The notes beneath the pieces are model-generated. The model was not told the origin of the DNA. It saw only the letters and a list, made by a program, of their open reading frames with translations, and ran no database searches. Positions 5,564-22,464 of a stretch of DNA of 35,005 bases are shown piece after piece. The position numbers were made by a program, and so were the translations under genes. The DNA is from a virus (taxonomy: Duplodnaviria > Heunggongvirae > Uroviricota > Caudoviricetes), in IMG/VR virus record IMGVR_UViG_3300035396_000446, positions 1 through 35,005 of that record; one strand, given 5' to 3'. Within the stretch, counting starts at the first letter, position 1. Each line of letters opens with the position of its first letter.

Positions 5564-6283
5564 TTATCCTATTATAATATCTACAGGTTTTGCTCTCATT
5601 CTTAATTCTTTTAAAAGTTCCGTCTGTTCAGAAGTGGACTGAGAGTTCAGTTCTGATGCATTAAAGTTAATTACGCCACCAGGACCCATAATACCGCTAC
5701 TAAACTTACCTCTGGCTTGACCTAACATACCCTTTACAATGGCAAGAGAATATCTTCTTATCCACTCATTTTGGTCTACATACCCGTCCGAAGGTGGGCA
5801 TCTGTATAAAACTGCGACTTTACCAACTTTAGATGGAGCAGGAAACAACCATAGTTTATCATCTATAACTTTATAGCTTCCCTCTGTTCCCAAGTTACGC
5901 TTCATGTCCTCTATATATCCTTTAAAAAGATAATAGTCACTCATTAATTGTTTAGAAGATGCTCTAAAATAATAGTAATATTGATTTATGAGTAAATATA
6001 CGGAGTCATCGCTATAATTTATATGACTTGCATCATAATAGACTTCTATAATATCATCATTCAGATTATTCATAACGTTTGATAGGTCATACCCATTTTT
6101 ACCAGGGGATACTTCAAACTGATGAACCATATTATCATAGCCTTGGTATTGAATCCATTTTTTTATAGCTTGTTCAACAGCTATTTCCACGCTTCTACAT
6201 GGAATCTCTACGGCTACCATGGGGTAACCCATCATTGCAAGAACGTACTCGTGAGTACCAGGGAATCGGTCTGTAAACTCCAT
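5564..6283 (-). CDS. Neck protein, T4 gp13-like
   Basis: N-terminal YVLAMMGYPMVAVEI...AVEQAI and C-terminal WIRRYSLAIVKGMLGQARGKF..GPGGVINFN...ELR...IIIG match gp13 signatures. Confidence 0.85.
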   Translation of the reverse strand: MEFTDRFPGTHEYVLAMMGYPMVAVEIPCRSVEIAVEQAIKKWIQYQGYDNMVHQFEVSPGKNGYDLSNVMNNLNDDIIEVYYDASHINYSDDSVYLLINQYYYYFRASSKQLMSDYYLFKGYIEDMKRNLGTEGSYKVIDDKLWLFPAPSKVGKVAVLYRCPPSDGYVDQNEWIRRYSLAIVKGMLGQARGKFSSGIMGPGGVINFNASELNSQSTSEQTELLKELRMRAKPVDIIIG

Positions 6284-6286
6284 ATC

Positions 6287-8767
6287 TTAACTCAAATTAT
6301 CCGCAAAATCAAAAAATGCAATGACATCATCATCGGTTTCTTTGAAACCTCTTACATTTATGTATTTTGAAACAAATATCTTACTATCGTCTGCTCCTTC
6401 TATACTTCGAAGAAGGAAATCCACTAAACTCTCATCTTTGTCTGATATGCCAGATTCATTGGCTCGCATATTTACACGTTCTATCTCATCTTTCTTTTTA
6501 TTTAGAGCAGATAAAAAGTTCGATGCTCTCTTCCTGAGATTCTTAACAACTTGTAAGTCCTTAGATACTTCTTCTTTAAACTTCTCATGGGGACTAAGTA
6601 GAGTGGGGTAATGCTTGTTCGCTCTTCTAAAATATAGCTTATCAATACCAGTCATACCGAGCTTTTTTAGTATTTCGTTCTCAAGTATCATTATATTATT
6701 ATCAAGAGCTTGTATGTATTCAGTTGTTGTATCAATGGGGGCATTTTCACCAGCTTCTACTAGTCTTCCATCTGAATTGGTTATAAGTTGTAAGAATTTT
6801 TTATTTGCGTCATTTCTAGAATCTTGAACTTCTCCTAGTTTATCTGACTCTTCTTTTATCTCATGGTGGAAGTAAGCACCTGGGTCTGTGCTTGTGTTAA
6901 TATCTTTAAGATCGGCATACATTTTTTCAGCAAACTTGAGCCGCTCCTCTAGATTTGCCTTTTCCTTTACTAGATCTTCTAGTTGTTTAGTCTTTAAAGA
7001 AATATACCGCTTTATTTCGTAATTACTTCGTCCAACCATACCAGGTTTTTCTTGTCTATCGCTTTCCACTTCTTTTATTTTTCTTTCAGTATCTTCTATA
7101 CGATGTTTAATATCTTGTAAATAATCAATCGCGGTTCTTCTATTTATGCCTTCCCCTTCTTCTGGCATCGCAATGTCACCAGGGGCGTCCGTTACTTCAT
7201 TTGGGTCTTCTACATCTCTTTGACTACTACCTTCATCTGAGTAAACAGGAGCATCCAAAGAACTATGACCAGCACTGGTGATGTCTCCTTTATATCCTTT
7301 TTGCATAAACTTTACCAAGGTAGTTTCAAACTCTTTTCCGATGTTCTTAGAAATCTCATCGAAAGAAGTAGTACTTCCACTTTTAGTGAGCTTTGAGACA
7401 ATACCCTTATATATGATGTCAAGAATAGCCTCTCCATAATAAGAATAAAATGTGGCATAATAAGTCGATTCTGTCCCATCCCCTGTTATATATTGGTATC
7501 CCTTCTTATTTGAGTCAAACCCAGCTTGTCGCCTAGCTTTTTTTACTAAATTTGCTATAATAGAATTAGAACTTTTACTGGCTATCTCATCTGCTGTTAC
7601 GATTTTATTAAAAAAACTATCTTTGTTTGGTCCGAATATAGCGTCGGATACAGGAATGGATGGTACGGTGTGCGCTGCCGAAGTATCTTCTGAGTCAGAT
7701 TGCGAATATGAAAAACCCTCTATATTCCCGCATTTTTTTGCTATAATAGTTTTAGTAGCATCATAGAGTGAAGTAGTTTTGATAGAGTTTACTAACTCTT
7801 TATCTTCTTTTTCATAGCCTGCTTCTTTATCAATGTTAATACCTTCAAAGTCTATCTGCTCAGAAGGACTTAGAAATCTTTCTTTCTTTCTATTAAGCTC
7901 CTCTGTACTTCTTTTGACTATATTATTCAATAAGTTTGATTTCTGTTGCTTTTTTAGGTTTTCTATCTTTTCTTCAATTTTCTCTATAGACTCATAATCT
8001 TTCTTAGCAGATCCTATTACAACAGGTAGATCGCTTACAATAACATCATCTGGTTTTGACCCATTTACAAACTCAACATGAGCTTCCGACCCGGTGTAAT
8101 AAATTTTTATATAAGCAGTTTTTGAAGAGCTATCAGTAACTGATACGCCGTCTTTTTTTGTATTTTTAACTTTATTAAGTCCCACACCGTAGTAACCACC
8201 CCTCCACTGACCTTTATTCCCATCTTTTTGAAGATCTGACCTATTCGAAGGAGGAGGGAGAAGAGACTTAATTGTTGTACCTTCGTTATTCTCTACACTA
8301 TATAGGGCAAACGCTCCGGAGTCCTTTTTTGTAAAGAAATTATCAATATGCCCAACATAAGTTTGTAATATTTTTCTATCTATATTCTTTGCATTCTTTA
8401 AAACATTTTTGGCGTAGTCAACTGCCTCTTCTTTAGTTAATTTTCCACCGCCAACTAACATGGGGTATTGCGCTTGTATTCTTGTTTTTACGCTTATTTC
8501 AACTCCCACAGAATCGTCGCCATTTACAAAAACATTAAACTTTTTTTGTAATAACTCTAGCGCAGGAATAGCAGGCTCTAAACCTTTTACTATTTGACTT
8601 AGATAATTCTGAATAAACTTCCGTGTTTGAGATCTTTTCCCTTCTTTTTCTTCCCCTTCCTGCAAAACAGAATCTCCATATAAAGCCTTATATAGATGCT
8701 CTGTGAATAGAGTGTACGAAGACCCCTTTTCATGGATAGAGTTTATTATACTACTTAGAAAATTCAT
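6287..8767 (-). CDS. Large hypothetical protein (826 aa) with C-terminal coiled-coil segments
   Basis: Long ORF with GAGG SD, first gene after the motif at 8813. Heptad-like K/E/L stretches. No family recognised. Confidence 0.8.
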   Translation of the reverse strand: MNFLSSIINSIHEKGSSYTLFTEHLYKALYGDSVLQEGEEKEGKRSQTRKFIQNYLSQIVKGLEPAIPALELLQKKFNVFVNGDDSVGVEISVKTRIQAQYPMLVGGGKLTKEEAVDYAKNVLKNAKNIDRKILQTYVGHIDNFFTKKDSGAFALYSVENNEGTTIKSLLPPPSNRSDLQKDGNKGQWRGGYYGVGLNKVKNTKKDGVSVTDSSSKTAYIKIYYTGSEAHVEFVNGSKPDDVIVSDLPVVIGSAKKDYESIEKIEEKIENLKKQQKSNLLNNIVKRSTEELNRKKERFLSPSEQIDFEGINIDKEAGYEKEDKELVNSIKTTSLYDATKTIIAKKCGNIEGFSYSQSDSEDTSAAHTVPSIPVSDAIFGPNKDSFFNKIVTADEIASKSSNSIIANLVKKARRQAGFDSNKKGYQYITGDGTESTYYATFYSYYGEAILDIIYKGIVSKLTKSGSTTSFDEISKNIGKEFETTLVKFMQKGYKGDITSAGHSSLDAPVYSDEGSSQRDVEDPNEVTDAPGDIAMPEEGEGINRRTAIDYLQDIKHRIEDTERKIKEVESDRQEKPGMVGRSNYEIKRYISLKTKQLEDLVKEKANLEERLKFAEKMYADLKDINTSTDPGAYFHHEIKEESDKLGEVQDSRNDANKKFLQLITNSDGRLVEAGENAPIDTTTEYIQALDNNIMILENEILKKLGMTGIDKLYFRRANKHYPTLLSPHEKFKEEVSKDLQVVKNLRKRASNFLSALNKKKDEIERVNMRANESGISDKDESLVDFLLRSIEGADDSKIFVSKYINVRGFKETDDDVIAFFDFADNLS

Positions 8768-8845: not shown

Positions 8846-9043
8846 TTAATAGCAAATTCCTAGTATTTGGCACTCACATTCTCTAAAATCTTTCTTATTT
8901 GGTTGTACATCTAGCTGTTTTAACCAATATAGCCTATCTTCATTTGTTTTAATAGTGTTTTCTATAAACCTATTTTTAACAACATTTACTTTGTTTTGAT
9001 AATTTCCTATCATAATCTCAGGTATTGATATTTTAGTTTCCAT
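8846..9043 (-). CDS. Small hypothetical protein (65 aa), possibly a remnant of an EAL-domain N-terminus
   Basis: AGGAG SD lies inside the GGDEF gene end (11-nt overlap). TIKTNEDRLYWLKQLDV aligns loosely with the EAL start ALENNEFELYYQPQVDL. Confidence 0.55.
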   Translation of the reverse strand: METKISIPEIMIGNYQNKVNVVKNRFIENTIKTNEDRLYWLKQLDVQPNKKDFRECECQILGICY

Positions 9044-10517
9044 TTTTCTCTCCTATGTAACATCTGTAACTTGTTATCTCTTTATTCTTTATAGAGTTCA
9101 ACGCCATATCCGCATACTTTAAAAGAAACGAGAATCCATTCCCGTCTTTCTCAAATGTGGAGGTTCCAATAGACAAAGTAATATTTGTATATTCTTTGTA
9201 GGGTTTAATTATATCATTAAATTTAGACATTAACTCATTTATTATTGTATTAATCTCTTCCATTGTTTGTAATTTATAAAAACAAACTAAGAATTCATTA
9301 CCAGTTAGTCTTCCCACTGCGTCATTCTCAGCTATAAACTCTTTCAAGAACTCCCCTATTATCTTAACCACTTTATCTCCGTAATCATAACCAAACGATT
9401 CATTTACCTTTTTTAAGTTATTAACTCTAATTAGAACAATCGTAAAGGGGTCAGAATATTTTATTTTATTTTTAATAAAACTTTCTATATATGTTCTGGT
9501 ATATGTGCTACTAACAGGGTCAACCTCTGCATTTTTTAAGGATTCTCTTATTGCAACATCCTCTGTTATATCTTTCCCCATCATTAATATATTAATTACG
9601 TTGCCAGCTTTATTTAATATTGGAACATAAGTCCTCTCATACAATGAGATTTCTCCATTAGAAAATCTTATTTTTTCTTTTATAATGGTCATTTCTTTAT
9701 TTTCTATTACCATGTCAATTGTTTCTAATCTAGTTACCCCAATTTTATAATTTAGACCCAAATAGTTACAATAATCCATGTCCGTTTTATCAATCATATA
9801 ATTTACTAACTCTTGGTTAGGAAAACAATGTAAATTAGCTTTTATGTACTTACCTTTAATATCTAATATGGCCAATTGATAAGGTATATTTTTAAACATA
9901 TTTGACATAAGAAATTCATTTCTTTCTAACCTTTCAGTATAAGCAATAAGTGAAATAGATCTTTTTTCATCCGCGGCCATTAATCTATACATCTCATCGG
10001 AGATATTTATACGAATTTTTAATAGTATGCCACTTAAAAACAAAAAAATTGCTAAAATTATAGAGAAGGGTATAGTCTCTTTTATAGTACCGTATTTTAT
10101 AAAAAAACCAATTGAAACTGAAAGAGTGCTATAAATACTGTATATTACATGCATTCTCATTGAGGATATAGAGTAAGTGCAGTATAGAATAGATATACTT
10201 ATTAAAAATAAAACTGCATTTGATGGGTAATCAGCTTCTACTACCACAGAGAATCCAAGCCATGTAGCTATTACAAACATAAGAAAGACATTAAGTCTAC
10301 TTGCTATGTTTATACCAATAGCATTAAACCTATCAATGCAAAAATAAACTATTAGAAAAAAACTTATTACTACAATTTTTACCGGAACCAAGTCTATTTG
10401 CAGTCCCATTATCATCATTACTATGTGTGGTATAACTGTTAATAATAAGAAAATAAGGATAGAAGCTTTATGATATGTCTTGTAAAAGCTAGAGTGGAAT
10501 GTCTCTTCTAATTTCAT
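9033..10517 (-). CDS. Membrane sensor: about 6 TM + PAS/PAC + degenerate GGDEF domain
   Basis: Six hydrophobic segments; PAS (NIPYQLAILDIKGKYIKAN...VPILNKAGNV..ILMMGKDIT); GGDEF fold (D.VSSTYTR, NNLKKVNESFGYDYGDKVV, GRLTGNEF, TLSIG, LLKYADMAL). Confidence 0.92.
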   Translation of the reverse strand: MKLEETFHSSFYKTYHKASILIFLLLTVIPHIVMMIMGLQIDLVPVKIVVISFFLIVYFCIDRFNAIGINIASRLNVFLMFVIATWLGFSVVVEADYPSNAVLFLISISILYCTYSISSMRMHVIYSIYSTLSVSIGFFIKYGTIKETIPFSIILAIFLFLSGILLKIRINISDEMYRLMAADEKRSISLIAYTERLERNEFLMSNMFKNIPYQLAILDIKGKYIKANLHCFPNQELVNYMIDKTDMDYCNYLGLNYKIGVTRLETIDMVIENKEMTIIKEKIRFSNGEISLYERTYVPILNKAGNVINILMMGKDITEDVAIRESLKNAEVDPVSSTYTRTYIESFIKNKIKYSDPFTIVLIRVNNLKKVNESFGYDYGDKVVKIIGEFLKEFIAENDAVGRLTGNEFLVCFYKLQTMEEINTIINELMSKFNDIIKPYKEYTNITLSIGTSTFEKDGNGFSFLLKYADMALNSIKNKEITSYRCYIGEKNGN

Positions 10518-10610
10518 GAGGTATAAAGTATCTCTATGATTTTACAAATTACTTTATCTGCGAGAAAAAATAATGGGAAAAGAACTACTATAATCTTTAT
10601 GGATTTTAAC

Positions 10611-10639
10611 TTGTCCCAAAATATACTTACCACTATACT
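10611..10639 (+). promoter_or_regulatory. Possible sigma70 promoter TTGTCC-17-TATACT, antisense to the REC gene
   Basis: -35 matches 4/6 and -10 matches 5/6, with an exact 17-bp spacer and the same -10 hexamer as the 2409 promoter. The AT-rich context lowers specificity. Confidence 0.4.
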
Positions 10640-10680
10640 TACTAAGATATATATTAAAAAGAAAAGAAATAAAGTTTCCA

Positions 10681-11124
10681 TCAAGAGACCTTCTTATTTT
10701 TAGTAATCTTTTTTATTGAATTTTCTATATAATTTCTAATCACAGAGGGGTCATCTCCTTTTGAGATATACCTTATTTTTTTACTATTAGCATATTCCCC
10801 TATGGATAGATTATCATCTACCATTCCAGTATATATAGTTATTGATTTATTAATTCCAGAATAAATGAATTTCTCGGCATTACAAGTAAGTAAATCTATT
10901 ACGTTACTACCTTTTTTTCCATCAGGTAAGTTCCAATCTATAATAGCAATATCATATTCTTCTTTTTTACCTTTTATAAAAGATTGAAAACTATCAAACT
11001 TATCTAAATCATATTTAATCTCAGGAAACTCAGTCATGATAGCACTTATGAGAGAGGATAATACATTTAAAATACTTACTGAGTCATCTACTAACAAGAA
11101 TTTTATTTTCATTTTTGTTCTCAC
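10681..11124 (-). CDS. Stand-alone response-regulator receiver (CheY-like REC) protein
   Basis: LLVDD (D13/D14), phospho-acceptor D63 in IIDWNLPDG, T99 (IYTG) and K122 (YISKG) are all present. Start is GTG 11124 or ATG 11112. Confidence 0.92.
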   Translation of the reverse strand: MRTKMKIKFLLVDDSVSILNVLSSLISAIMTEFPEIKYDLDKFDSFQSFIKGKKEEYDIAIIDWNLPDGKKGSNVIDLLTCNAEKFIYSGINKSITIYTGMVDDNLSIGEYANSKKIRYISKGDDPSVIRNYIENSIKKITKNKKVS

Positions 11125-11774
11125 TACTGTGTTTGATACCAGTAATCAGTCAATTTTATAAGAATTAATTCTAATTTTATTCTTTTTTGGTCAGAATCAA
11201 AATCAGAGTATATAATTTTTATAATATCGTCTAAGAACCCAAACTCTTTATTGTAAAAACATGCTATCTTTTCTTCGGTTGGGAGTATCTTTCCTTTTGT
11301 GTTGGGTAGTTGAAAGAAGTATCTATCAACATTTTTTATAACCGTTTCAAATATTCTTTTTATATCGTGCTCTGCTCCGATAGGATCATTATTAATATTT
11401 ACTACATCCAAAAACTTAAATGTTAGTTCTCTTTGAACATACATAAATGTTAATTTTATTGCTACATCTACTTGATTATTTGTCAAATAACTATTTTGCT
11501 TTTCTTCAAGTATTTTTAACATTGTTAATAAATTTGAAGTGGAATCATCTATATTCTGAACATGATAACTAACAGTATTCTTTAAATCATCAATAGAACT
11601 TTGGTATTTTATAAAAGATGAATCTTTCCATATACCACTATTTTTTAAAATCTTTTCAAGAACTGGATAAGCTTCTCTGAGAACGATTACACCTACAATC
11701 AATGAAAAAGCACCCGTGGATAAAGCCGAGTTATCCTTTATAATCTCTATTAAAAACTTTAGTAATTGTTCCAT
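11124..11774 (-). CDS. Single-pass membrane protein with coiled coil (possible class III holin or antiholin-like)
   Basis: One N-terminal hydrophobic helix (aa ~17-35) followed by a soluble helical domain, 216 aa. Function inferred from topology only. Confidence 0.7.
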   Translation of the reverse strand: MEQLLKFLIEIIKDNSALSTGAFSLIVGVIVLREAYPVLEKILKNSGIWKDSSFIKYQSSIDDLKNTVSYHVQNIDDSTSNLLTMLKILEEKQNSYLTNNQVDVAIKLTFMYVQRELTFKFLDVVNINNDPIGAEHDIKRIFETVIKNVDRYFFQLPNTKGKILPTEEKIACFYNKEFGFLDDIIKIIYSDFDSDQKRIKLELILIKLTDYWYQTQ

Positions 11775-12160
11775 TATTTACCTTTCCTTGGTTTATCTGA
11801 TAATCCCTTGCTGTCTAAAAACGCATCAGCTCTTTGTTTTAATTTGATCACACCACTTACAGCATCTATTGCTGAATAAATTAAAATAGATCCTGATAGA
11901 TATAAAATCAAAGTGTAGGTAAATTGTTTATAATCTGAGTAATCTATATCTGTCATATATGTTCTGATGTTCAAGACTGTTGTTGCAGCTAAAACTATTA
12001 AAGATATGGAATGTTTCATAACCTCATTCTTAATAAACTTTGCCTTCAATAACTTAAATATAAGAGATGGAATGAAAGATATTATGGCAATGATAGAACA
12101 TGTTACCACTAAATCTTTTATACCTAACCCGTTTAAAATTGCTAAAAAATCATTTGCCAT
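11774..12160 (-). CDS. Three-TM membrane protein with basic C-tail (class I holin-like)
   Basis: Three hydrophobic segments, charged KPRKGK C-terminus, AAGGAG SD. Confidence 0.65.
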   Translation of the reverse strand: MANDFLAILNGLGIKDLVVTCSIIAIISFIPSLIFKLLKAKFIKNEVMKHSISLIVLAATTVLNIRTYMTDIDYSDYKQFTYTLILYLSGSILIYSAIDAVSGVIKLKQRADAFLDSKGLSDKPRKGK

Positions 12161-12172
12161 GATCTACTCCTT

Positions 12173-12397
12173 TTAATTATCTGATACCTTCAAAGACACG
12201 TAGCCGATTACACAAAATAGAAAAACAGAGACAAACACAAACAGTCCTTCATAGATTGTACAATACAAAAACATCTGAACCTCTGCCCAAAAATTCAAAT
12301 CCATAAGACTAGGTACAGAGCAGTCCAAGAGAACATTAGAGATTGTATATGCAAATGCAATGAATATAGATAATATAAAAGATACTAAAATACTCAT
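12173..12397 (-). CDS. Small two-TM membrane protein (74 aa)
   Basis: Two hydrophobic segments. ATGA-type overlap with the upstream hydrolase gene. Confidence 0.65.
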   Translation of the reverse strand: MSILVSFILSIFIAFAYTISNVLLDCSVPSLMDLNFWAEVQMFLYCTIYEGLFVFVSVFLFCVIGYVSLKVSDN

Positions 12398-13008
12398 CTA
12401 AAATTCTCCATAACGTTATTTATAACTTTTTTCCAATCAGAATGTGCCATAAAATTCATATGAGGTTCATCGTTAAAATCTTTATTATCACATTTCTTAA
12501 ACTCATATTGTTTATCTGCACCTACCATATAAGCACCCATAAAAGGGTCTAATCTAACTCTTTGATATGCATTGATTATCTTTAAATTGCTTAGTTTTTT
12601 CCATTCATCTGGAATCACTATCACTTTTTTATGACTATAAGGAATCAAGTTTTCTTCTAAAACAAACCCATAAGCATCGGCAAATACCAATGTAATAGAT
12701 TTTCTTGATTTTAAGAACTCAAAATTATTGTCAAATAAATGTTTGAATGTCTGATATACATTTACAGCACCCAATGACTTACCACATATTAGTAAATTAT
12801 CATAGTCTTTGTGTTCTTCATGCATTATGAACTTCTCTGGCATTTTATGACTATTAAAAACCTTAGAATGAACAGATTCATCTAACATGATAATATTAGG
12901 GTCATTTATCTTGTTAAGTTCTATACGGAATCGTCTCTTTGCAGATTCTACTTCAAAACCTGTCCACCAGGCTTTCCCTTCTATAAAGATTCCGTTTATT
13001 TTTTTCAC
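12394..13008 (-). CDS. Alpha/beta-hydrolase-fold protein (serine esterase/lipase-like)
   Basis: Nucleophile elbow LLICGKSLGA (GxSxG, S78), following strand TLVFAD, and a C-terminal His (DEPHMNF). Confidence 0.7.
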   Translation of the reverse strand: MKKINGIFIEGKAWWTGFEVESAKRRFRIELNKINDPNIIMLDESVHSKVFNSHKMPEKFIMHEEHKDYDNLLICGKSLGAVNVYQTFKHLFDNNFEFLKSRKSITLVFADAYGFVLEENLIPYSHKKVIVIPDEWKKLSNLKIINAYQRVRLDPFMGAYMVGADKQYEFKKCDNKDFNDEPHMNFMAHSDWKKVINNVMENFR

Positions 13009-13238
13009 ACGTGTTCCTGTATTTCTACATTTGGTAATCTATCAAAACTTAATACTTCAAACATTTCCTTCATTTTATAACTACAATGAATTGTTAATAC
13101 TTTATCTGTCCCATCGAGTGATTTTAATGATAATAATATCTTAGATATCTGACTACTACTTAGATATCCTTCTATTATTATGTCATGGTCTTTTGTTTTA
13201 TCTAGAAAATTAGGAAAACTATACATATTATATTTCAT
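13005..13238 (-). CDS. STAS-like anti-sigma-factor-antagonist protein (77 aa; start revised to ATG 13238)
   Basis: YLSSSQISKILLSL...G....L.I....KMKEMFEVLSFDRL parallels STAS (Y.DSSG.G.L...G...L......VF...G.DRL), and the phosphorylatable-Ser position is retained. The ATG lies 1 nt after the upstream stop. Confidence 0.6.
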   Translation of the reverse strand: MKYNMYSFPNFLDKTKDHDIIIEGYLSSSQISKILLSLKSLDGTDKVLTIHCSYKMKEMFEVLSFDRLPNVEIQEHV

Positions 13239-13239
13239 C

Positions 13240-13551
13240 TCATTCCCAAAGGTCGGTATCTGTTCCAAAAATAAGCGGAACTGCATCTAACCATTCTTCT
13301 TCTAATAATATCTTCCCATAAATTGCCATTTGGGATATTGGTTGACCGTCTACAATTGGATATTTTTCACCACATAATTGAACTGTTTTTACTGCGAGTG
13401 GGACTGCCCCATCTTTTCTTGCTTGTAAAGATGAATAACCATCTAAATCCACATAAAATATTTTATTTATAGTATCTAGTTCTATTCGTCTTAATCTCCA
13501 GTATGTTGCGTCTACTCCGAAAGGTGTTGAAATTGATTTTGTTAATGCCAT
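13240..13551 (-). CDS. Small fibre-associated protein (chaperone-like, commonly found after phage fibre genes)
   Basis: MAL.K.I.TPFGV.ATYWR......D.....GY.S..AR..G..PL pattern. Directly follows the 1077-aa fibre gene. Confidence 0.7.
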   Translation of the reverse strand: MALTKSISTPFGVDATYWRLRRIELDTINKIFYVDLDGYSSLQARKDGAVPLAVKTVQLCGEKYPIVDGQPISQMAIYGKILLEEEWLDAVPLIFGTDTDLWE

Positions 13552-13562
13552 TTTATTTTCTC

Positions 13563-16500
13563 CTATGTTAATGTTATTGTTACGTTTCCACCAGAATAAG
13601 AATATGAACTAAATGTTCTTCCTGTTCCATCTAATACTGGTGCCGACAGTGTCCCCGATTGACTACCTGTATATTGAAAAATTGTATATGTCCCTGCATC
13701 TAATGAAGCGGCTTGAAATGTTACAGCATTAGAATTAAATGTAAGATTTCCAGATACAGAAATTCTAGAAACAGTTGTGGTGCTTCCTATATTTACTTTA
13801 ATTAAAGAACCAGATGATAATGTTAAAGCACCTGTTCCAAAAGTTCCTGCATTTGATTCTCCAGTTCCACCGAATATAGTTGCTCCAGATGCTACTGTAA
13901 ATGCACTACTACTACAAGTCCCTGTACCACCCACCAAACCAACAGATATTTTAGTTGTTTGAGAGTATGTATTTGTTCCATTTAATAATAAAGTTCCAGC
14001 GCCTTCTTTTGCCACATACCCTGCACCAGATATTACTCCATTTACTGTCAATTGTCCTGAAGTTCCTATTTCAAATGCCATCGGATATGTGGCATTGGTT
14101 CTATTGGCAACCGAAATTGCACCATCAATCGTGTTAGTTATTCCATCTGGCACTTGAATATATGGTTTTGCTGTAGAAGGTGCCACACCGAATGCAATAG
14201 TTCTACTAAAAATTGTTGAGTTAGTATCGAATCTTATATATACATTAGTAGTATTATTACTTCCATCTCCAGTAAAAATAACTCCCGACCCTGTATTTGT
14301 GCCTACAACCGAAGCACCTGATGCTGGTACAGTATTACTTATAATAAATGTCCCAGTTACAAGAAGAATACCTTTAGTGAAATCATTAGATGTATTTGTG
14401 AACTTACAGGTACCAGATACCCCTTGCCCAGAAGTACCAACGCCCAATTGAGTATCATTCACTCCGTCATACGAAGAAGAAGTATCTGAAATTTTTCCCG
14501 AAATTGTAAGATTACTTGATGTGTAATAAATTTCTACCCTTCTGCCAACTTTTTCCCAGGATGTGGTTGTCACTCCAACATTAATATCACCATTTGTATT
14601 CAACCATCTTGCAATGTTTTTGTTTGAACCTACGTTTTCCGCAACTACTATCATTCCATAATGTGCAGTATTATTGCCAGTATACCATGATGGTCTTGTC
14701 CAAGCAGAACTGTTTACAACCCATACACCTCTTTGAGATAAAGTTGTTTGACTTGTCACTAATATTAAATCACCAGTTACTAAGGATACTCCATTTATTG
14801 TTTGTTCCCCAGATAATGTAACATTAACATTGGTTATTGTTTTGACGAATCTTACGCATGGTTGATTTAGAAATTTATCTGGTGTAGAACCATATAAAAT
14901 ATCACCAGTCCAATCAATGGTTGCACCATTGTATGCACCAAAAGCATCTCTATAATTTCCACTTATTCCATAACTTCTTGTAAAATCAACATTTTTTGCT
15001 ACTGTGGTTCCTGCTCCAATTTGAAGACATGAACCATTGAATCCACCAGATGCTGGACCACCTATGTATATTGTTCCAGATTGAGTTAAATCCCCAAATG
15101 AAGTTGCGTTAGAACCTCTTACAAACCCAGACTCAACTATAACATTCCCCGTCCATCCATCATTTGCAGACGTTACAATTGCAGCTCCAGAATATGGAAC
15201 AGTTCCTCTAGAAAGAAAATTGCCAGAACCTTTTAATGCACCATTATAATTAATGCTTCCAAAAAATCCAACAGAAACCAAATCATTTAATAATGTTAAT
15301 GATTGTGCAATATCATATGCATTATTTGTTCTACAATAATGTATAGTAGAAAATTTGTTTGTTTGTTCTTTTATGTTTATGTTAAAACTTCCAGCTAAAT
15401 TCATAGCAGCAAAATTTACAACATTCATATTTCCAATAGTTATATCATTTTCCAAAGTTATAGTTCTTTCTGATGTTAAACCATTTCCGAATTGAGCATA
15501 ACTTCCTGCCCAATTTACTGGAAGTTTATTTAGATTCTGGTCATCAGCATCATAATGATGTACTTCAACATTCATCAAATCAAAACTTGCATTAGTTCTA
15601 TTTATTTTAATTCCAAATCCAGTAATTGCTTCATCTATTATTCCAGATAATCCAGTTTGAGATGCAGTCCAATTATCATACCCACTTTGTCTATATCCAT
15701 AACTAACAGTATAATTATCAGTTCCAACTTTATGAATTTCAAAAGCATAAAATGTTTGTGTTTGTCCAGAGCCTTGAAAATCAACTTGATTTGTTAGACG
15801 AGTTCCAGTTGTTATCATATCTCTACTTGCAGAGTTTGATTGAAAAGAATTTGCGTACCTAATCGAAGCAGTTTTCCCTGTTAAAGTATTACTTACTGGT
15901 GATGTTATAGTAAAAGTATTTGTGGCAACATTAGATATCAGATAACTTGCATTTATAGGAAGACTTGTAGTATTACCACTTACGGTAACATATACATATT
16001 CATTATTAGAAAAACCATGATTATTAAATGTTATTGTAATTGTAGTTCCAGATTGAGTCCATGTTGCATTTACTTGACTTATCCAACCATGATTCATATA
16101 ACCAACACATTTATCAGCACTAACGAATCCAAAACAAATTGAGTTACCAACAGCGAATGCAGTAAGCGCAGCCCAATTAAATTCTACTCTTATTTTATCA
16201 CCATCATTGAGTGTGACTGAATTTGGAAATGTAGCTACCAAAGTATTTGCTGCGTTTACATCTAATACTTCCAAGATACCTGGGCCGCCATCCATTGATT
16301 TATAAGCAACTAGCCCACCACTATTTGAAAATGAGCTCCAACTCCAAGTCGCTGGTATATGACAACCATTATTTGTTACAGGAGATGAAATTGTTCTTGT
16401 AGAGATTGTATCTCCTGACATAGTAAAATCTAAAAGCTGGTCATTCATAACAGGTTTCCACTTCTCCCAACTTTTAGTAGAAATGGTATGTGTTCCTGTG

Positions 16501-16796
16501 CCACTTCCAGCAAATGTTATAGCAGTTCCTGCTTTTGTTGTAGAAATTCTTATAGTAGTTCCAGACACATATTGAATGAAATAAATTGTATTTGCTGTAA
16601 TTTCAGTGGGTAAAGTATCTGATGTAGTAAAATAAACTTTTTGATTTATTGCTATTAAAGATGGTTTTGTACTCCAAACAATATTAGAAGAACCACCACC
16701 AGTAAATGTTACAGTTCCAGATTGGTTATTCCAATATCCATTGCAATCTGAATCATGCATCCATATAGATTTATCAGACCCTACAAAACTACTCAT
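13563..16796 (-). CDS. Fibre/adhesin with autotransporter-passenger (PATR) beta-helix repeats and an inserted phage fibre domain
   Basis: PATR repeat (ISGAGYVAKEGAGTLLLNGTNTYSQTTKISVGLV); phage domain (TLSGEQTINGVSLVTGDLILVTSQTTLSQRGVWVVNSSAWTR); beta-sandwich modules (TITFNNHGFS...NTFTI). Confidence 0.8.
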   Translation of the reverse strand: MSSFVGSDKSIWMHDSDCNGYWNNQSGTVTFTGGGSSNIVWSTKPSLIAINQKVYFTTSDTLPTEITANTIYFIQYVSGTTIRISTTKAGTAITFAGSGTGTHTISTKSWEKWKPVMNDQLLDFTMSGDTISTRTISSPVTNNGCHIPATWSWSSFSNSGGLVAYKSMDGGPGILEVLDVNAANTLVATFPNSVTLNDGDKIRVEFNWAALTAFAVGNSICFGFVSADKCVGYMNHGWISQVNATWTQSGTTITITFNNHGFSNNEYVYVTVSGNTTSLPINASYLISNVATNTFTITSPVSNTLTGKTASIRYANSFQSNSASRDMITTGTRLTNQVDFQGSGQTQTFYAFEIHKVGTDNYTVSYGYRQSGYDNWTASQTGLSGIIDEAITGFGIKINRTNASFDLMNVEVHHYDADDQNLNKLPVNWAGSYAQFGNGLTSERTITLENDITIGNMNVVNFAAMNLAGSFNINIKEQTNKFSTIHYCRTNNAYDIAQSLTLLNDLVSVGFFGSINYNGALKGSGNFLSRGTVPYSGAAIVTSANDGWTGNVIVESGFVRGSNATSFGDLTQSGTIYIGGPASGGFNGSCLQIGAGTTVAKNVDFTRSYGISGNYRDAFGAYNGATIDWTGDILYGSTPDKFLNQPCVRFVKTITNVNVTLSGEQTINGVSLVTGDLILVTSQTTLSQRGVWVVNSSAWTRPSWYTGNNTAHYGMIVVAENVGSNKNIARWLNTNGDINVGVTTTSWEKVGRRVEIYYTSSNLTISGKISDTSSSYDGVNDTQLGVGTSGQGVSGTCKFTNTSNDFTKGILLVTGTFIISNTVPASGASVVGTNTGSGVIFTGDGSNNTTNVYIRFDTNSTIFSRTIAFGVAPSTAKPYIQVPDGITNTIDGAISVANRTNATYPMAFEIGTSGQLTVNGVISGAGYVAKEGAGTLLLNGTNTYSQTTKISVGLVGGTGTCSSSAFTVASGATIFGGTGESNAGTFGTGALTLSSGSLIKVNIGSTTTVSRISVSGNLTFNSNAVTFQAASLDAGTYTIFQYTGSQSGTLSAPVLDGTGRTFSSYSYSGGNVTITLT

Positions 16797-19700
16797 ACTG
16801 TTCTATTTATCCTTAATGATATTGCTAAATCAGTAGCACCACTTACTGAGGTTAAAACAACATCTATTGTTTGATTTGCTGTAAAAGTATTTGCTGCTGT
16901 GGCTTGTGTATTACTTATAACAGAAGTTACTGCTATTGCGCCTAAACTTGTTATAGAGGTTGTATCTATTCTAAAATTAGCGGTACAAGTTCCAGCAGAT
17001 GTTTTACAATCTGCATAAGTAATAGTACCTGCATAATTAGTTCTTAATCTAATAACATACGATTTATTTGTAGGAGATTCAATAAAGAAATCTAATTGGT
17101 CTGCAACATTTCCATCAGATGATAATAAAAATGTTGCGTCCACACCTTTATCAGGAATAGTATAAGTTCTACTAGCAGCAGGTGCGGTTGAAGAAATAGT
17201 AACTGTATTGGTTGTTCCTAATGTTAATTGATTTGTAGTTTTAGAAATTGTTAGTTGTGTGTTATCTAAGTATACTTGTTCTTTTGAATAAATGCCATAT
17301 TTTAAAACTGCTGGATTTATAGTTGAGATTAATCCTATATATGCACCATATATAGTTCCTGTAGACCCTTCTTGACTAACTGCATTATCTGCTATTCTAA
17401 ATCCATAAAAATCTCTATAACCAGAGAAGTGATCTACATCAAATGCAACTCCATAAGGAGTAGTAGCGTCGGTTCCGACTCCAGCAGCTACAGCAATTGC
17501 CCCACCAGTATCACCATTAGTTTTATACGCCTCTGAATAGATACCCCATGCACTTCCCTCTGATGATGCGTTTTCAACATTAGAAAAGATACTAATTCCT
17601 ACTGCATCCCCAGTACCTGCTCCAGTAACAAAAGCATTTATGTCTAATGCTTTTCTTGCAGTACCATCAGTGGAATCTACATCAATAGTAGTTTCAGAAT
17701 TTATTTGAAAAGTATCTGCCCCAGCATCATATAATAATGCTTGACCGCTACTATTTTTATTAATAGTAAAATCAGAATCAGTTGCTGTACTATTTATTAT
17801 AAGACCTCTTGATATAGTAACTGAATCGGCTATTAAAGCAATTAATGTTGTTGCAAATGTAGCAACATCAGTCAAACCGTTCTCTAATGTAAAAGTTCCT
17901 GATGACCAACTTATTGCCTGAGCTGCTTGTCTATATGTAGTTGTTCCTAAAGTTATATCATCATTTGCTATTATTGTCCCTCTTGTCGCATCTGATGTCG
18001 ATTGTAAAGTTAAATTTTCAGATGCAGCAGTTCCACCAATAATAGTTTGTCCACCAGCAACACCATCTTTATTTACTGCTTGGTCATCTATTTTATCGAA
18101 TGCTAATTGAGCATTTGTTTCAGTTGCAGTTAGAACTCTATTAAAATTAGAAATGTCAAGAGATACATCTGTTCCTGAAACTGCTGTCGTACCAGTGCCT
18201 ATAACAGTCCCAGTAACGGTTGCTACTCTTAGGTTAATAAAAGATGCATCAGATATTCTTGGATTCTGATTGTTAGTATTTAAAAAAGTTATTCTATAAA
18301 ATGGAACAACTTCTTGAAATGGTAGAGCAGTGAGTCCACTTAGATTTTGGAATTGAAAAGGTGTTTGTGTTAATGCAGTACTTAAAGTAGCAGTTGTACT
18401 TTGACCTTGACCACATATTGCAATAACAGGTTCAGATGTATTATTTGTTGCGAGTAAATACATAGGAATATATCTATTAGATGTTCCATTAGTAAAAGTA
18501 CCATTAGTTGCATTATTATATTGTGCTACCCCAGTTGCTATGTTTGTAGTAGTTGCTGCAAGATTTGATTTGACTACTGTAAAATCACCAGTTGCTAATT
18601 TTCTCCAAAGATTTGTTCCAGCATTAAAATAATAAATTGGCATTCTACCACCAACTACTATCGCATCTCCTGTTGTTAAACCAGTGACTGATGTAACTGT
18701 AAATGTAGTTCCCGTTCCACCAGTAGTTATAGTAGTAGTTCCTCTAACAGTTGTAGTATTTCCAGCCATCACAGTTATTGCTTGACCAGTTGCTAAAGTT
18801 CTTGAAGTAGGAAATACTATTGTAGTGGCATTTGTTCCTGTATCTGCTAATGCAGTAAACCCTAAGAATTGTTCTACTGTTAAACCCCAATTTGTAGAAG
18901 GTGTATCGACGGTAGAAGAATAAGAAGCATCCGAGTGAACAATAGTATTTAAAATATCTTCGTCAAAGAATGACCCACCAGATATTTGAATCATTGTTCT
19001 ACCAAAATTATTATTTGTATTTCCTGATAGATTTGTTAAACCATTATATTGACTAAATGTTAGTCCATTTTTATATAAAGCACCCTGTGAGTGATTCCTT
19101 GCATGTTGAAAAATATCTCTACCTGCTGTATGTCTTTCTTCTCCAACCCACATAAAAGTATTGCCAGTTGCTTCAAAATAAGCATTCCATAATAAAACAT
19201 CTGGGTCATAAATACTCCAAGGAGTTTTGGTTAAAGATATTACTGGTGATGCGACATCTGTTGTAGATTGGTTTACGTATAAAAACCAAGTTCCTTCAGA
19301 TGCTACTGCTGTTTGAGTATATGCAGATAGTTCAGTGGCAGTTACTGTAAACTTTTTGTCATTTAGATAATAACTAAAAGAAGTATTAGCACCTACAAAT
19401 GAAATTGTAGCAATAATATTTCCTGCATCATAAGTAAATGCTACTTTAAATTTACTTCTTTCACTCCATGGAATACCAGTGTTTATATGAGTATCCAATC
19501 CTACTTCTGCTGAATTTCTGTTTAAATCTGATATAAAAACATCTGTAAAAGTTGGATTATCAGTTGAATTTATTGCTTGGTCTGAATGATAATAATTATT
19601 GGTTGTTGGATTTCCACCTTGAATATTATTTGTATCATTATGCGAAATAATACTTGCACCACAATATTTAACATCAAAGGCACTATCAGTAATACCGGCG

Positions 19701-21313
19701 GATGCACCATTCTGAATGATTGAACGTCCTACTAAAACACAATGTTGTTTTATTACTAAAGGTAAATCTGATCTTTCAGATTCTAGTTCTGCATCACCAT
19801 ATCTTTTATGATTGCCTGTTCCTAAGACATAGAAGGTTTCTTTAACATTACCAATAGAACGATAATGCCATCTTATGCCATAATATGCGGCAGTTAATGT
19901 TGTAGGCCCTGTTAAAGGGTTATACTGAGTGTTATCATAAGTGGAAGCAGATGTTGTAAAAGACCATGTCCCATTTGTTACACTTGCCATTGTATATAAA
20001 TCTGTTGCAGATGTATATGCTTGAACCCATTGGATAAAAGTTCCAGCATAAACATAAGATTCTGTTATACTAATTACTCTTGAAGATTCTGAAATAATTA
20101 AACCAGTGCTTCCTGCTCTGCTATATGGTTGAGTTGCTTGTAAACATGCTGCTATTTTTTCAGGTAGAGCAACACCAGGAGCATCCCCAGATAAACTATG
20201 AATAGTATTTCCTGTTCTCCAGCATTTATAGATTGGAACTTTTGTAGCATAATCAAATGAATTAGCATTTGATGCTAAAGCAACTATTGGAGTTCCACCA
20301 TTATAATCAACATAAAGATATTGAGAAATACCATCAGTAAAACTATGAGGACCAGATGCTGCAATAGTATATTTTTCTATTGTTGTTAAACCATTTGTAT
20401 TTGATTTTAATAATACATCAAATCCACCTAGATCAGCAGTGCCATCATTATTATCTGTGAATGTAGGTTCAGTTCCATATACACCAACTGTGGTATATTT
20501 TCTAAGTGTATCAAGAACATCAGTATCTACTATTTTTTTCCAAACTGCTGCAATTTCTGTTGAATCAGTACATATAAAAACAGAATCAGTAGCAGTGTTT
20601 ATCCATACGTCGGAAACTCTATAAACAGTTCCGTTTGTCCCTTCACCATCATCCGCAATAGATGGGTCTGAGGTACGTTGATATTGATTTGCTTTTAGCG
20701 ATAGCCCTGTATTAACAGCGGCAGAAGTGGGTACGGTAGAATCATCTACTCCTAAAGTTGTTACGATAGTCTTAGCTGAGTCTTTTATGACTTTACCTGT
20801 CGTAGAGTCGAATAAAGCAATCCCATTGTCAACAGAACTAGCAGGGCCTGTTACTGCACCACTAATATTCTTTTGAATTACATTCCAATATATTCCAACG
20901 GTCGCTTGATTTCCACTAGCAGTAGAATCAGTATTACATAAAATTAAATCCCCAACCTCTACTTCTACACCAGATGCTCCACCTATTTTACCAGCAACTG
21001 ATACAATATATAACCAACCAGCATCAGCAGCTGGATAATTAGGATTAGTAGAGCAATCTATAACACCTTTATATACAAGAGCATTTGCTTCTCCAAGTAT
21101 ATTATTTATTTGTGTTTGGATAGAACTTGTTACACCTTTTAAATAACTTAACTCTGTTAGTGAGGGGTAAGTAGCAACTGGTAAAGAAACAACATTATTA
21201 TTCGAGTCTAAGGATAGTATTTCAGAGTGTGTTATATCAGTAATAGCAACTCCATTACTAAAGGTAACTAAATCACCAAATGTTTGTTGTTCGTTCTGGT
21301 CCAAATAACTCAT
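16793..21313 (-). CDS. Giant modular virion fibre/decoration protein (1506 aa)
   Basis: Thr/Gly/Ser-rich, with phage fibre modules (YPSLTELSYLKGVTSSIQTQIN, VTGPASS.D..IALFD.TTGK.IK, HND..NIQGG...YYH). GAGGAG SD. Confidence 0.85.
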   Translation of the reverse strand: MSYLDQNEQQTFGDLVTFSNGVAITDITHSEILSLDSNNNVVSLPVATYPSLTELSYLKGVTSSIQTQINNILGEANALVYKGVIDCSTNPNYPAADAGWLYIVSVAGKIGGASGVEVEVGDLILCNTDSTASGNQATVGIYWNVIQKNISGAVTGPASSVDNGIALFDSTTGKVIKDSAKTIVTTLGVDDSTVPTSAAVNTGLSLKANQYQRTSDPSIADDGEGTNGTVYRVSDVWINTATDSVFICTDSTEIAAVWKKIVDTDVLDTLRKYTTVGVYGTEPTFTDNNDGTADLGGFDVLLKSNTNGLTTIEKYTIAASGPHSFTDGISQYLYVDYNGGTPIVALASNANSFDYATKVPIYKCWRTGNTIHSLSGDAPGVALPEKIAACLQATQPYSRAGSTGLIISESSRVISITESYVYAGTFIQWVQAYTSATDLYTMASVTNGTWSFTTSASTYDNTQYNPLTGPTTLTAAYYGIRWHYRSIGNVKETFYVLGTGNHKRYGDAELESERSDLPLVIKQHCVLVGRSIIQNGASAGITDSAFDVKYCGASIISHNDTNNIQGGNPTTNNYYHSDQAINSTDNPTFTDVFISDLNRNSAEVGLDTHINTGIPWSERSKFKVAFTYDAGNIIATISFVGANTSFSYYLNDKKFTVTATELSAYTQTAVASEGTWFLYVNQSTTDVASPVISLTKTPWSIYDPDVLLWNAYFEATGNTFMWVGEERHTAGRDIFQHARNHSQGALYKNGLTFSQYNGLTNLSGNTNNNFGRTMIQISGGSFFDEDILNTIVHSDASYSSTVDTPSTNWGLTVEQFLGFTALADTGTNATTIVFPTSRTLATGQAITVMAGNTTTVRGTTTITTGGTGTTFTVTSVTGLTTGDAIVVGGRMPIYYFNAGTNLWRKLATGDFTVVKSNLAATTTNIATGVAQYNNATNGTFTNGTSNRYIPMYLLATNNTSEPVIAICGQGQSTTATLSTALTQTPFQFQNLSGLTALPFQEVVPFYRITFLNTNNQNPRISDASFINLRVATVTGTVIGTGTTAVSGTDVSLDISNFNRVLTATETNAQLAFDKIDDQAVNKDGVAGGQTIIGGTAASENLTLQSTSDATRGTIIANDDITLGTTTYRQAAQAISWSSGTFTLENGLTDVATFATTLIALIADSVTISRGLIINSTATDSDFTINKNSSGQALLYDAGADTFQINSETTIDVDSTDGTARKALDINAFVTGAGTGDAVGISIFSNVENASSEGSAWGIYSEAYKTNGDTGGAIAVAAGVGTDATTPYGVAFDVDHFSGYRDFYGFRIADNAVSQEGSTGTIYGAYIGLISTINPAVLKYGIYSKEQVYLDNTQLTISKTTNQLTLGTTNTVTISSTAPAASRTYTIPDKGVDATFLLSSDGNVADQLDFFIESPTNKSYVIRLRTNYAGTITYADCKTSAGTCTANFRIDTTSITSLGAIAVTSVISNTQATAANTFTANQTIDVVLTSVSGATDLAISLRINRTV

Positions 21314-21344
21314 AATAACTCCTCACCATTATTTATATCATAAA

Positions 21345-22463
21345 TCATATTGATGTTCCTTTTAATTTAGCAATTTCAATTCCTGCCTGTAAAAAGGCCC
21401 CTACTGCATAATTTCCTTGTGATGAAGAATTCCATAATGTTGCTGGGTATGGGTCTTTACCAATATCTTGAGTCCAACCAACAATTCCGCTATCTCTTAA
21501 ACAGTATTTAATTAACCCATTCCATCCTTTAGTAATAAAGGGTAGATAAGTAGAATCTAAGAATCCATTTCTTACACCCCAAGCCATTCCCCATACAAAA
21601 AATGATGTACCAGAGGATTCTAATAAATCAGGGTCTTGTGGGTCTAGCAAGTTAGCAGACCATAAACCAGTATCATTTTGAATAGTTATTAATTTTGCTG
21701 CCATATTTTGAAACATCGTAATATACTCTGCTCTATTAGCATTATCTATTGGAAGTTCAGTTAATATTCTAACAAGCATTCCAAATACCCACCCATTCCC
21801 TCTTGACCAAAATACTTTTTGTCCATTAGCAGATATAACTTTAGGGTAAACATAAGCCGCATCTCTAAACCATAAATGTTCATCTGTGTCATATAATCCA
21901 GTAATTTCAAGTTCAGAAATAGGTTGTTCATATCCAGACCAACGAAAATAACTATACATTTTGTCAAGAAAATTGTTATCATCTTCTTCTACACCAACCT
22001 TAACAAATGTTGGCATTGCCATGTATAATGCATCACACCATGTCCAATAATTTACAGCAGGTAATGCGATTTGTGCAGTAAGATTTGCTAAAGTATTAGA
22101 ATACTTATTTACATCTATTCTGCCTTCATGTCTATAATAATCTATATAAGATTGTCCCGCAGTTTGGTCATCAGCATGGTATGCGTCTGTTCTCACTGGT
22201 TTTAACCAGGAATGTTTATTACCCCAACCTAAAATATAATTCCAAGTATTTGTATCATTAAGATATTCTGCAACTGCAACTGCCCCATGAAAGTAAACCG
22301 CACTATCCCATTTATTATCTTCATATAGTGGGTATGATGCTTTCCAATAAGAATTTGCTAACTGCACAGCACTTATTATCTCACTGTACGGTGGTAGTAT
22401 ACTAATTCCTTTTTCAGAAATCTGCTTGCTTAATCTATTGTACTTACTTATTTGTGTAGGCAT
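21345..22463 (-). CDS. Glycoside hydrolase, GH105/GH88 clan (unsaturated uronyl hydrolase, YteR-like); start revised to ATG 22463 (372 aa)
   Basis: WDSAVYFHG, ADDQ..GQ.Y, WCDALYMAMP (catalytic-Asp motif), LWFRD, FWSRGNGW and ESSGTSFF..GMAWG..NG motifs. The ATG lies 1 nt after the upstream stop. No signal peptide evident. Confidence 0.9.
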   Translation of the reverse strand: MPTQISKYNRLSKQISEKGISILPPYSEIISAVQLANSYWKASYPLYEDNKWDSAVYFHGAVAVAEYLNDTNTWNYILGWGNKHSWLKPVRTDAYHADDQTAGQSYIDYYRHEGRIDVNKYSNTLANLTAQIALPAVNYWTWCDALYMAMPTFVKVGVEEDDNNFLDKMYSYFRWSGYEQPISELEITGLYDTDEHLWFRDAAYVYPKVISANGQKVFWSRGNGWVFGMLVRILTELPIDNANRAEYITMFQNMAAKLITIQNDTGLWSANLLDPQDPDLLESSGTSFFVWGMAWGVRNGFLDSTYLPFITKGWNGLIKYCLRDSGIVGWTQDIGKDPYPATLWNSSSQGNYAVGAFLQAGIEIAKLKGTSI

Positions 22464-22464
22464 T

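Follow-up and report, generated by a model that had tools for sequence, protein, structure and literature searches.

A receiver and its membrane partner between fiber and neck genes

The DNA analyzed here, called the window throughout, is the first 35 kb (positions 1 to 35,005) of a 99-kb IMG/VR virus record (IMGVR_UViG_3300035396_000446), for which CheckV gives a completeness of approximately 47%. Its source is an uncultured jumbo phage, a distant T4-like myovirus. The system in question lies within a run of nine open reading frames (ORFs) on the minus strand at positions 8846-13286, between a gene for a 1077-amino acid (aa) fiber-like protein and a gene for an 826-aa protein that precedes gp13. 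An earlier note on this DNA, made from the sequence alone, had described a co-oriented, mostly overlapping run between the fiber and neck genes and had read it as a signaling cassette that the phage carries together with membrane proteins. Both descriptions hold, and the cassette lies in the late part of the genome that encodes virion genes. All nine ORFs point in the same direction, and adjacent ORFs overlap by 1-47 nucleotides (nt) or are separated by gaps of at most 12 nt. Inside the run, no terminator-like site was found on the minus strand. The T4 late-promoter motif TATAAATA shows no enrichment, and sigma-70-like sites occur at chance level. The eight ORFs that the note had listed are present, but a ninth, encoding a 56-aa membrane hairpin, had been overlooked. 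The note had also raised the possibility of a bacterial chimeric join. Because a 190,870-bp ENA contig of the same phage has an identical gene order across the region, and because phage structural genes lie on both flanks, no such join is present. The five inner genes form the conserved module:

11774-12160, minus strand: small membrane protein of 128 aa, read as having three transmembrane (TM) segments, with a charged C-terminal tail
11124-11774, minus strand: protein of 216 aa with no known family, the invariant partner of the receiver
10681-11124, minus strand: stand-alone CheY-like receiver (REC) of 147 aa
10514-10684, minus strand: two-segment membrane hairpin of 56 aa, coupled in translation to the REC and GGDEF genes on either side
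9033-10517, minus strand: membrane protein of 494 aa with TM segments, a PAS-like region, and a degenerate GGDEF domain

The assignment of the 147-aa protein as a receiver, which rests on profile matches and active-site residues, is secure. A receiver was recognized by a PF00072 match together with an acidic pair, an acceptor Asp, a Thr or Ser, and a Lys. All five phospho-site residues are present (D13/D14/D63/T99/K122), in agreement with the earlier description of the domain as intact, and seven of the eight family members match PF00072 (best E-value, 4.5e-8). The copy in this phage is divergent, scoring 19.7 bits and thus falling under the Pfam gathering score of 30.2 bits; the gene caller places its start at 11112, for a protein of 143 aa. 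Its acceptor belongs to the motif D63-W-N-L-P, and three residues before the Lys there is an aromatic residue, Y119. The family profile matches CheY structures at approximately 2e-6, and such structures dominate its matches. The only NCBIfam match of this copy is likewise CheY, although it is weak (0.006). Because the chemistry of the phospho-site, acceptor Asp included, is invariant across the family, phosphorylation likely matters for the function of the protein. As in the CheY-FliM, DivK, Spo0F, and CpdR systems, the receiver is a single domain of about 130-150 aa without an output domain, and nothing is missing from its acidic pocket, acceptor Asp, Thr/Ser, Lys, or aromatic switch residue. 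It differs from such proteins in being phage-encoded and in always adjoining a phage-specific, membrane-tethered helical protein. No gene with the PF02518 (HATPase_c) domain was found in the 99-kb record, approximately 47% of the genome, and the histidine kinase that would be encoded alongside the receiver in a two-component system is absent from that record.

The 216-aa protein, which the earlier note had taken for a simple one-TM membrane protein, is instead the invariant partner of the receiver. It is all-helical: one N-terminal TM helix (from hydropathy) is followed by a long helix, and the C-terminal part is a helical bundle. The AlphaFold2 (AF2) model has a mean predicted local distance difference test (pLDDT) score of 65, with values of 77-90 in the C-terminal domain. 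When this model was searched against pdb, pdb_via_wide, atlas, BFVD, and afdb_clusters, the matches were confined to generic helical bundles and uncharacterized phage proteins. The family comprises 11 clusters of 206-223 aa, eight of which were found by a profile search of 1.8 billion representative proteins. Pooled over its 11 members, the N-terminal tail contains 19 Lys/Arg versus 29 Asp/Glu, and the flank C-terminal to the TM helix contains 31 Lys/Arg versus 13 Asp/Glu. This net-negative tail and net-positive flank predict an N-out/C-in topology, which would place the 170-residue helical domain in the cytoplasm alongside the receiver. A complex prediction for the receiver with residues 45-216 of the partner gave a score of 0.22 against a mark of 0.32, a result that says nothing either way. 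A role for the 216-aa protein as a kinase or a histidine phosphotransfer (Hpt) protein was considered and rejected, as the family has no invariant His. Together with the lack of HATPase_c genes in the 99-kb record, this observation suggests that the phosphodonor for the receiver probably comes from the host.

The 494-aa protein contains a GGDEF domain (PF00990, 89.6 bits against a cut-off of 23.8, E = 2.4e-25; TIGR00254, 84.3 bits). The earlier note had described it as a six-TM protein with a PAS domain and a degenerate GGDEF domain. The last of these features is upheld, whereas the first two are less firm. Hydropathy gives five clear N-terminal segments; a weaker sixth was also read, in keeping with the even count needed for a cytoplasmic GGDEF domain. 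The PAS region is sub-threshold (PAS_4, 20.0 bits versus 23.1, E = 8.5e-4), and a profile of residues 185-335 matches only the sensor domain of the diguanylate cyclase 8c05 (E = 0.006). The active site was judged by residue-level alignment to the Thermotoga maritima diguanylate cyclase 4urq, with GG[DE]EF and a metal-binding Asp (equivalent to PleD D327) taken as the signature of an active cyclase. R364 stands in place of the metal-binding Asp, and T405-G-N-E-F stands in place of GGDEF. Receptors that bind cyclic di-GMP (c-di-GMP) at an inhibitory site (I-site), such as PelD and PopA, were recognized by an RxxD motif five residues upstream of GGDEF; in this protein the motif is replaced by A396-E-N-D (R-S-D-V in 4urq). 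The nucleotide-contact positions N372 and D381 are retained. By these residues, the GGDEF protein of this phage is a catalytically dead pseudo-enzyme. Like the degenerate GGDEF domains of PelD, PopA, and the GTP-sensing PdeA, it keeps its fold. Because the I-site is also lost, c-di-GMP binding at that site is unlikely, unlike in PelD and PopA, and the EAL domain that is regulated in PdeA has no equivalent in this protein. The proximity of the REC and GGDEF genes mirrors the fused bacterial proteins PleD, WspR, and DgcR, and both DgcR and PleD are found among the matches of the two proteins. Here, however, the two domains are separate proteins, and the GGDEF domain is carried by a multi-TM, PAS-like protein.

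Conservation of the inner genes in uncultured phages

In all 10 contexts that could be read around a gene of the 216-aa family, a REC gene lies downstream of it. It is the next gene in nine of them, and in L010 a 79-aa ORF comes between. This pair recurs in at least six other divergent lineages of uncultured phages. A GGDEF gene follows the pair in five lineages, and a 3-TM gene precedes it in four. The conserved unit is the five inner genes, encoding the 3-TM protein, the 216-aa protein, the receiver, the 56-aa hairpin, and the GGDEF protein. Within it, the genes of the 216-aa protein and the receiver are the core, and the others accompany them frequently. Conservation of gene order across related phages, which the earlier note had proposed to examine for the whole run, is therefore found for this core in divergent phages but not for the four outer genes, which lack counterparts in any related locus compared.

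One close relative is L003, a phage contig of 167 kb that was recovered again as L017 and L020, in which fiber genes are followed by genes for a 2-TM protein (101 aa), a 3-TM protein (132 aa), a 221-aa protein, a receiver (150 aa), a 52-aa protein, and a GGDEF protein (490 aa). Compared with their counterparts in this phage, identity is 25% for the 3-TM protein, 56% for the 221-aa protein, 51% for the receiver, 45% for the 52-aa protein, and 51% for the GGDEF protein. A second contig, L004, has the same gene order, and identities for L003/L004 span 25-56%. Remoter versions of the module are found at L010-L015 and L024. For the six genes compared between L003 and L004, the ratio of nonsynonymous to synonymous substitution rates (dN/dS) is 0.06-0.11, the 52-aa peptide included, which argues that these are working genes. 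The two small membrane proteins of the core share in this constraint. The 128-aa protein shows two clear hydropathy segments in this phage and three in its L003 and L004 homologues, hence its reading as a 3-TM protein; its homologues measure 132 aa in L003, 136 aa in L004, and 124 aa in L011, and its dN/dS is 0.06. The 56-aa hairpin shares 45-47% identity with the ORFs of 52 aa that occupy its place in L003 and L004, with a dN/dS of 0.07.

The active site of the GGDEF protein differs among lineages. In L003, whose copy is a close relative, the motif is AGNEF, a His occupies the position of the metal-binding Asp, and the I-site is also lost; in L004, the domain is cut off by the contig end. The L013 protein, 30% identical to that of this phage, is canonical (FVDLDNFK and GRLGGDEF), and no GGDEF gene follows the pair in L014 or L015. 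By these data, c-di-GMP synthesis is optional and not the conserved output of the module; c-di-GMP, which the earlier note had named among the host signals that the cassette might tap, cannot be its shared currency. The conserved function lies in the receiver and its membrane partner.

The distribution of the module is patchy. L013 is a T4-like contig with gp13, gp14, and gp15, yet three module genes are its only blastp matches to this phage at E < 1e-5, so that the module is more strongly conserved than the neck genes and the phage backbone. Conversely, the closest backbone relative, L002, is 38-57% identical over five neck-side genes but lacks the module at the corresponding site: in the 3.8 kb upstream of gp13, where the GGDEF gene lies in this phage, it has an ankyrin-repeat gene and unrelated genes. 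The ankyrin-repeat protein (L002:553-1923, plus strand) is 456 aa in length (Ank_2, 2.5e-19) and is encoded in the late region upstream of gp13. Searches of 185,579 species genomes of bacteria and archaea and of 50,697 records of cultured phages yielded no protein of the 216-aa family. Among cultured phages, blastn with the region and tblastn with the 826-aa, 216-aa, and 204-aa proteins found nothing, and scanning IMG/VR with single proteins (GGDEF, 204 aa, and 103 aa) gave no match either. Alignment-based scans of IMG/VR and JGI metagenomes re-found only the L003-type phage. To judge from these comparisons, the module is apparently a rare, conserved, and mobile accessory cassette.

The L014 version has distinctive neighbors. 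Two genes before the pair is a gene for an AstE/AspA-type (M14-clan) zinc hydrolase (L014:1329-2225, plus strand), and two genes after it is a gene for a 184-aa protein with a lipoprotein-like signal (…LFFGC; L014:4891-5445, plus strand). This neighborhood could be another envelope or lysis context.

Function of the module

The module may be a membrane effector that is gated by the phosphorylated receiver and acts late in infection, probably on the timing of lysis. We favor this reading tentatively, and that judgment already takes in the part of it that is directly observed. In the proposed mechanism, a host donor would phosphorylate the receiver, either through cross-talk from a histidine kinase or through acetyl phosphate, and the phosphorylated receiver would then dock onto the helical domain by which the 216-aa membrane protein reaches into the cytoplasm. 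The 6TM-PAS-GGDEF protein would supply a second, membrane-derived input, acting as a nucleotide-binding or scaffolding pseudo-enzyme in this phage and as a real diguanylate cyclase in some relatives. The output would be exerted at the cell envelope late in infection, most likely on the timing of membrane permeabilization for lysis, with the 216-aa protein, the 3-TM protein, or both as the holin-type component. A more specific version, which we consider rather unlikely, is a lysis clock carried among T4-like phages on a mobile cassette: a holin-type 216-aa protein would be held or released by a receiver that reads the phosphodonors or the kinase activity of the host, and the GGDEF-derived sensor would provide the second input.

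Several observations point toward lysis, and two of them, the L003 amidase and the holin-named feature clusters, lend some support from context to the lysis link suggested in the earlier note. In L003, a T7-lysozyme-type amidase endolysin is encoded two genes downstream of the module, directly preceded by a gene for a papain-family Peptidase_C1 protein with a C-terminal TM helix (L003:11536-12892, plus strand). The L003 module is thereby bracketed by the 2-TM and 3-TM proteins on one side and by the membrane-anchored peptidase and the amidase on the other. The amidase matches 1,492 phage records, and among the matches listed the annotation is endolysin, amidase, or lysozyme. In Atlas feature comparisons, the 216-aa protein comes closest to viral clusters that carry the automatic name 'putative Phage holin' (score 0.90, with 186-187 of 256 features in common). 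The 3-TM protein, with its charged tail, has the format of a class I holin. The module follows fiber-annotated genes in this phage, L003, and L004, and probably also in L011 and L013. A known parallel is lysis control in T4, with holin T and the antiholins RI and RIII. The phage is T4-like, and proteins of the partner family, at 206-223 aa with one N-terminal TM helix, have the size and format of T. Gene t follows the tail-fiber genes 37 and 38, and the 216-aa gene likewise lies at the end of the fiber cluster. The placement of a small cytoplasmic regulator beside the 216-aa protein would parallel RIII of T4. To our knowledge, no known antiholin is a phospho-switch; the regulator proposed here would be one.

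Other observations weigh against a role in lysis. No holin family is matched by any module protein in Pfam, PHROGs, or NCBIfam. This negative extends to all 11 members of the 216-aa family in Pfam and to the 128-aa protein in Pfam and PHROGs; the latter resembles a class I (lambda S-like) holin in format only, with an endolysin nearby only in L003. Of shuffled sequences, 4-10% also reach the Atlas feature score of 0.90. Alignment of the 216-aa family to T4 T by hhalign gives a probability of 0.8%, no match to PF11031 (Phage_holin_T) was found, and the two proteins differ in that the predicted 216-aa fold is all-helical and without a PDB match. The topology of T4 T, which has one TM helix and a large C-terminal domain in the periplasm, is moreover opposite to the predicted N-out/C-in topology of the 216-aa protein. 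Endolysins of the Amidase_2, Peptidase_M15_3, and Phage_lysozyme families were not found in the 99-kb record, the nearest candidate lysin in L013 lies approximately 7 kb away on the opposite strand, and remote relatives of the 3-TM protein adjoin portal and topoisomerase genes rather than lysins. Finally, we infer the phosphodonor, the binding of the receiver to the 216-aa protein, and the effect on lysis.

The module could instead rewire host behavior through c-di-GMP, flagellar motor, biofilm, or surface polysaccharide signaling, in which case the receiver would mimic CheY or act as a sink for phosphate, and the GGDEF protein would be a cyclase or a decoy of host partners. The predominance of CheY among the receiver matches described above is consistent with this possibility, as is the D-W-N-L/M-P motif around the acceptor Asp, which E. 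coli CheY shares. The L013 version retains a canonical cyclase site (DxD and GGDEF), and the nearest bacterial relatives of the GGDEF domain are ordinary PAS-GGDEF-EAL signaling proteins. We nevertheless regard this alternative as doubtful. The cyclase is dead in this phage and in L003, and in two further lineages the pair is not followed by a GGDEF gene, while the rest of the module is under purifying selection. No second REC or GGDEF gene was found in the 99-kb record, in which PilZ and EAL were not searched for. Late expression beside the fiber genes would leave little time for behavioral effects, and an invariant, phage-specific 216-aa partner is left unexplained.

Superinfection exclusion or receptor masking, as by Llp or Cor, would assign the membrane proteins the task of blocking entry or protecting progeny, with the receiver and the GGDEF protein as regulators. 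The location of the module after fiber and receptor-binding genes, its several small membrane proteins, and its patchy, mobile distribution, which is typical of exclusion genes, all agree with such a role. However, none of the proteins resembles known exclusion proteins, most of the 216-aa protein is predicted to lie in the cytoplasm rather than the periplasm, and the usual expression of exclusion genes is early or from a prophage rather than from a late operon. We therefore consider exclusion improbable.

A counter-defense role is also conceivable, in which the receiver would be a cRec-type enzyme that processes cyclic phosphates or nucleotides, directed at cyclic-nucleotide signals, and the dead GGDEF domain would be a nucleotide binder. 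cRec domains with conserved catalytic Asp residues occur in jumbo phages (Iyer et al. 2021, PMC7824862). One of the eight receiver family members matches PF20274 (cREC_REC) weakly (E = 0.006), the GGDEF domain has a nucleotide-cyclase fold that retains N372 and D381, and the same phage encodes an Apyc1 anti-Pycsar homologue elsewhere. Against this, the PF00072 matches of the family are far better, none of the NAD+/ADP-ribose or RNA-repair (RNA-ligase) enzymes that define cRec neighborhoods occurs in any module context, and the membrane anchoring of two partners is unexplained, making this role very improbable.

Scarcely credible is the remaining reading, that of the earlier note, in which the whole run would form a partner-switching cassette around holins, analogous to the B. 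subtilis energy-stress pathway RsbQ-RsbP-RsbV: a protein resembling a small alpha/beta hydrolase (204 aa), a PAS-like sensor, and a protein with a STAS-like predicted fold (93 aa) are encoded in one co-oriented, tightly packed run, but the PAS-like protein bears GGDEF rather than PP2C, the STAS and PAS calls are sub-threshold, the 99-kb record contains no RsbW-type (HATPase_c) anti-sigma kinase, and the three genes never occur together in relatives. Because these outer genes, along with the 74-aa and 65-aa genes, have no counterpart in relatives, the nine genes are not one system, and the analogy to RsbQ-RsbP-RsbV fails.

Receiver and GGDEF genes of phages are already on record, for example in PHROG families that lack an assigned function. 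Our literature search found no paper on a conserved phage module that invariably combines an intact receiver with a membrane protein dedicated to it. If this pair controls lysis or another envelope event, then some phages couple a late-infection decision to the two-component or acetyl-phosphate state of the host. A phosphorylation-gated lysis clock, if true, would be a class of lysis regulation without a described counterpart. If the pair controls lysis or another envelope event, the question would be directly testable with four small genes. The occurrence of canonical and dead cyclases within one module family also provides a natural experiment on degenerate GGDEF domains.

Neighboring genes and other features of the phage

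The four outer genes of the run are neighbors specific to this lineage and not parts of the module:

13005-13286, minus strand: protein of 93 aa, or 77 aa if started at the next ATG, whose predicted fold is STAS-like
12394-13008, minus strand: probable small alpha/beta hydrolase of 204 aa
12173-12397, minus strand: 2-TM protein of 74 aa (two hydropathy segments)
8846-9043, minus strand: ORF of 65 aa overlapping the end of the GGDEF gene, of uncertain status as a gene

The Atlas model of the 93-aa protein (pLDDT 0.67) has template-modeling scores of 0.55-0.64 to STAS clusters, with feature scores of 0.77-0.83. No Pfam match was found at E <= 1, STAS (PF01740 and PF13466) included, and the STAS call is a lead at the level of the modeled fold rather than family membership. 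The 204-aa protein is likely an alpha/beta hydrolase. Its GKSLG motif has the placement of a nucleophile elbow, after a predicted strand (residues 71-77) and before a helix (residues 81-100), in a single-sequence AF2 model whose pLDDT of 45 is too low for a fold search. Its language-model (Atlas) features resemble those of viral clusters and of alpha/beta-hydrolase clusters, with scores of 0.95-0.96. It has no sequence match in Pfam, PHROG, NCBIfam, or PDB and no relative in IMG/VR or among cultured phages.

The surrounding genes of the window are those of a virion region:

29324-30802: gp23-type major head protein (PHROG, 5e-77)
13563-28626: very large fiber genes
21345-22499, minus strand: GH88-family glycoside hydrolase in the fiber operon (precomputed Pfam assignment)
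13563-16796, minus strand: 1077-aa fiber-like gene flanking the run
6287-8767, minus strand: 826-aa coiled-coil protein, directly upstream of gp13
5564-6283: gp13 neck protein

The best database match of the gp23-type protein is 38%, to an uncultured 595-kb phage. The 1077-aa fiber-like protein has a weak match to the autotransporter PATR repeat (E = 0.002) and PHROG matches resembling phage head-decoration proteins. The 826-aa coiled-coil protein has no match in Pfam, PHROG, or cultured phages; on the T4 map, this place before gp13 belongs to fibritin (wac). A dip in GC content over the cassette was considered as a sign of recent horizontal acquisition. This interpretation was rejected, as the GC content at third codon positions (GC3) of the cassette is within the range of the other window genes.

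Within the fiber gene cluster of L003, genes for a sulfotransferase and an adenosine 5'-phosphosulfate (APS) kinase are found (L003:2884-4011, plus strand). The counterpart of the L003 2-TM protein in the phage studied here is a 100-aa membrane protein (L007:2626-2928; genome C1 57626-57928, minus strand) that is 35-37% identical to the L003 and L004 proteins and is encoded approximately 45 kb from the module, beside counter-defense genes. Outside the window, the Apyc1-type anti-Pycsar metallo-beta-lactamase homologue (PF23023, 9e-23) is encoded at L007:4543-6352 (genome C1 59543-61352, minus strand). It adjoins an ADP-ribosylglycohydrolase (2.4e-37) and an Eco57I-like methylase fragment, and this neighborhood is likely a counter-defense island.

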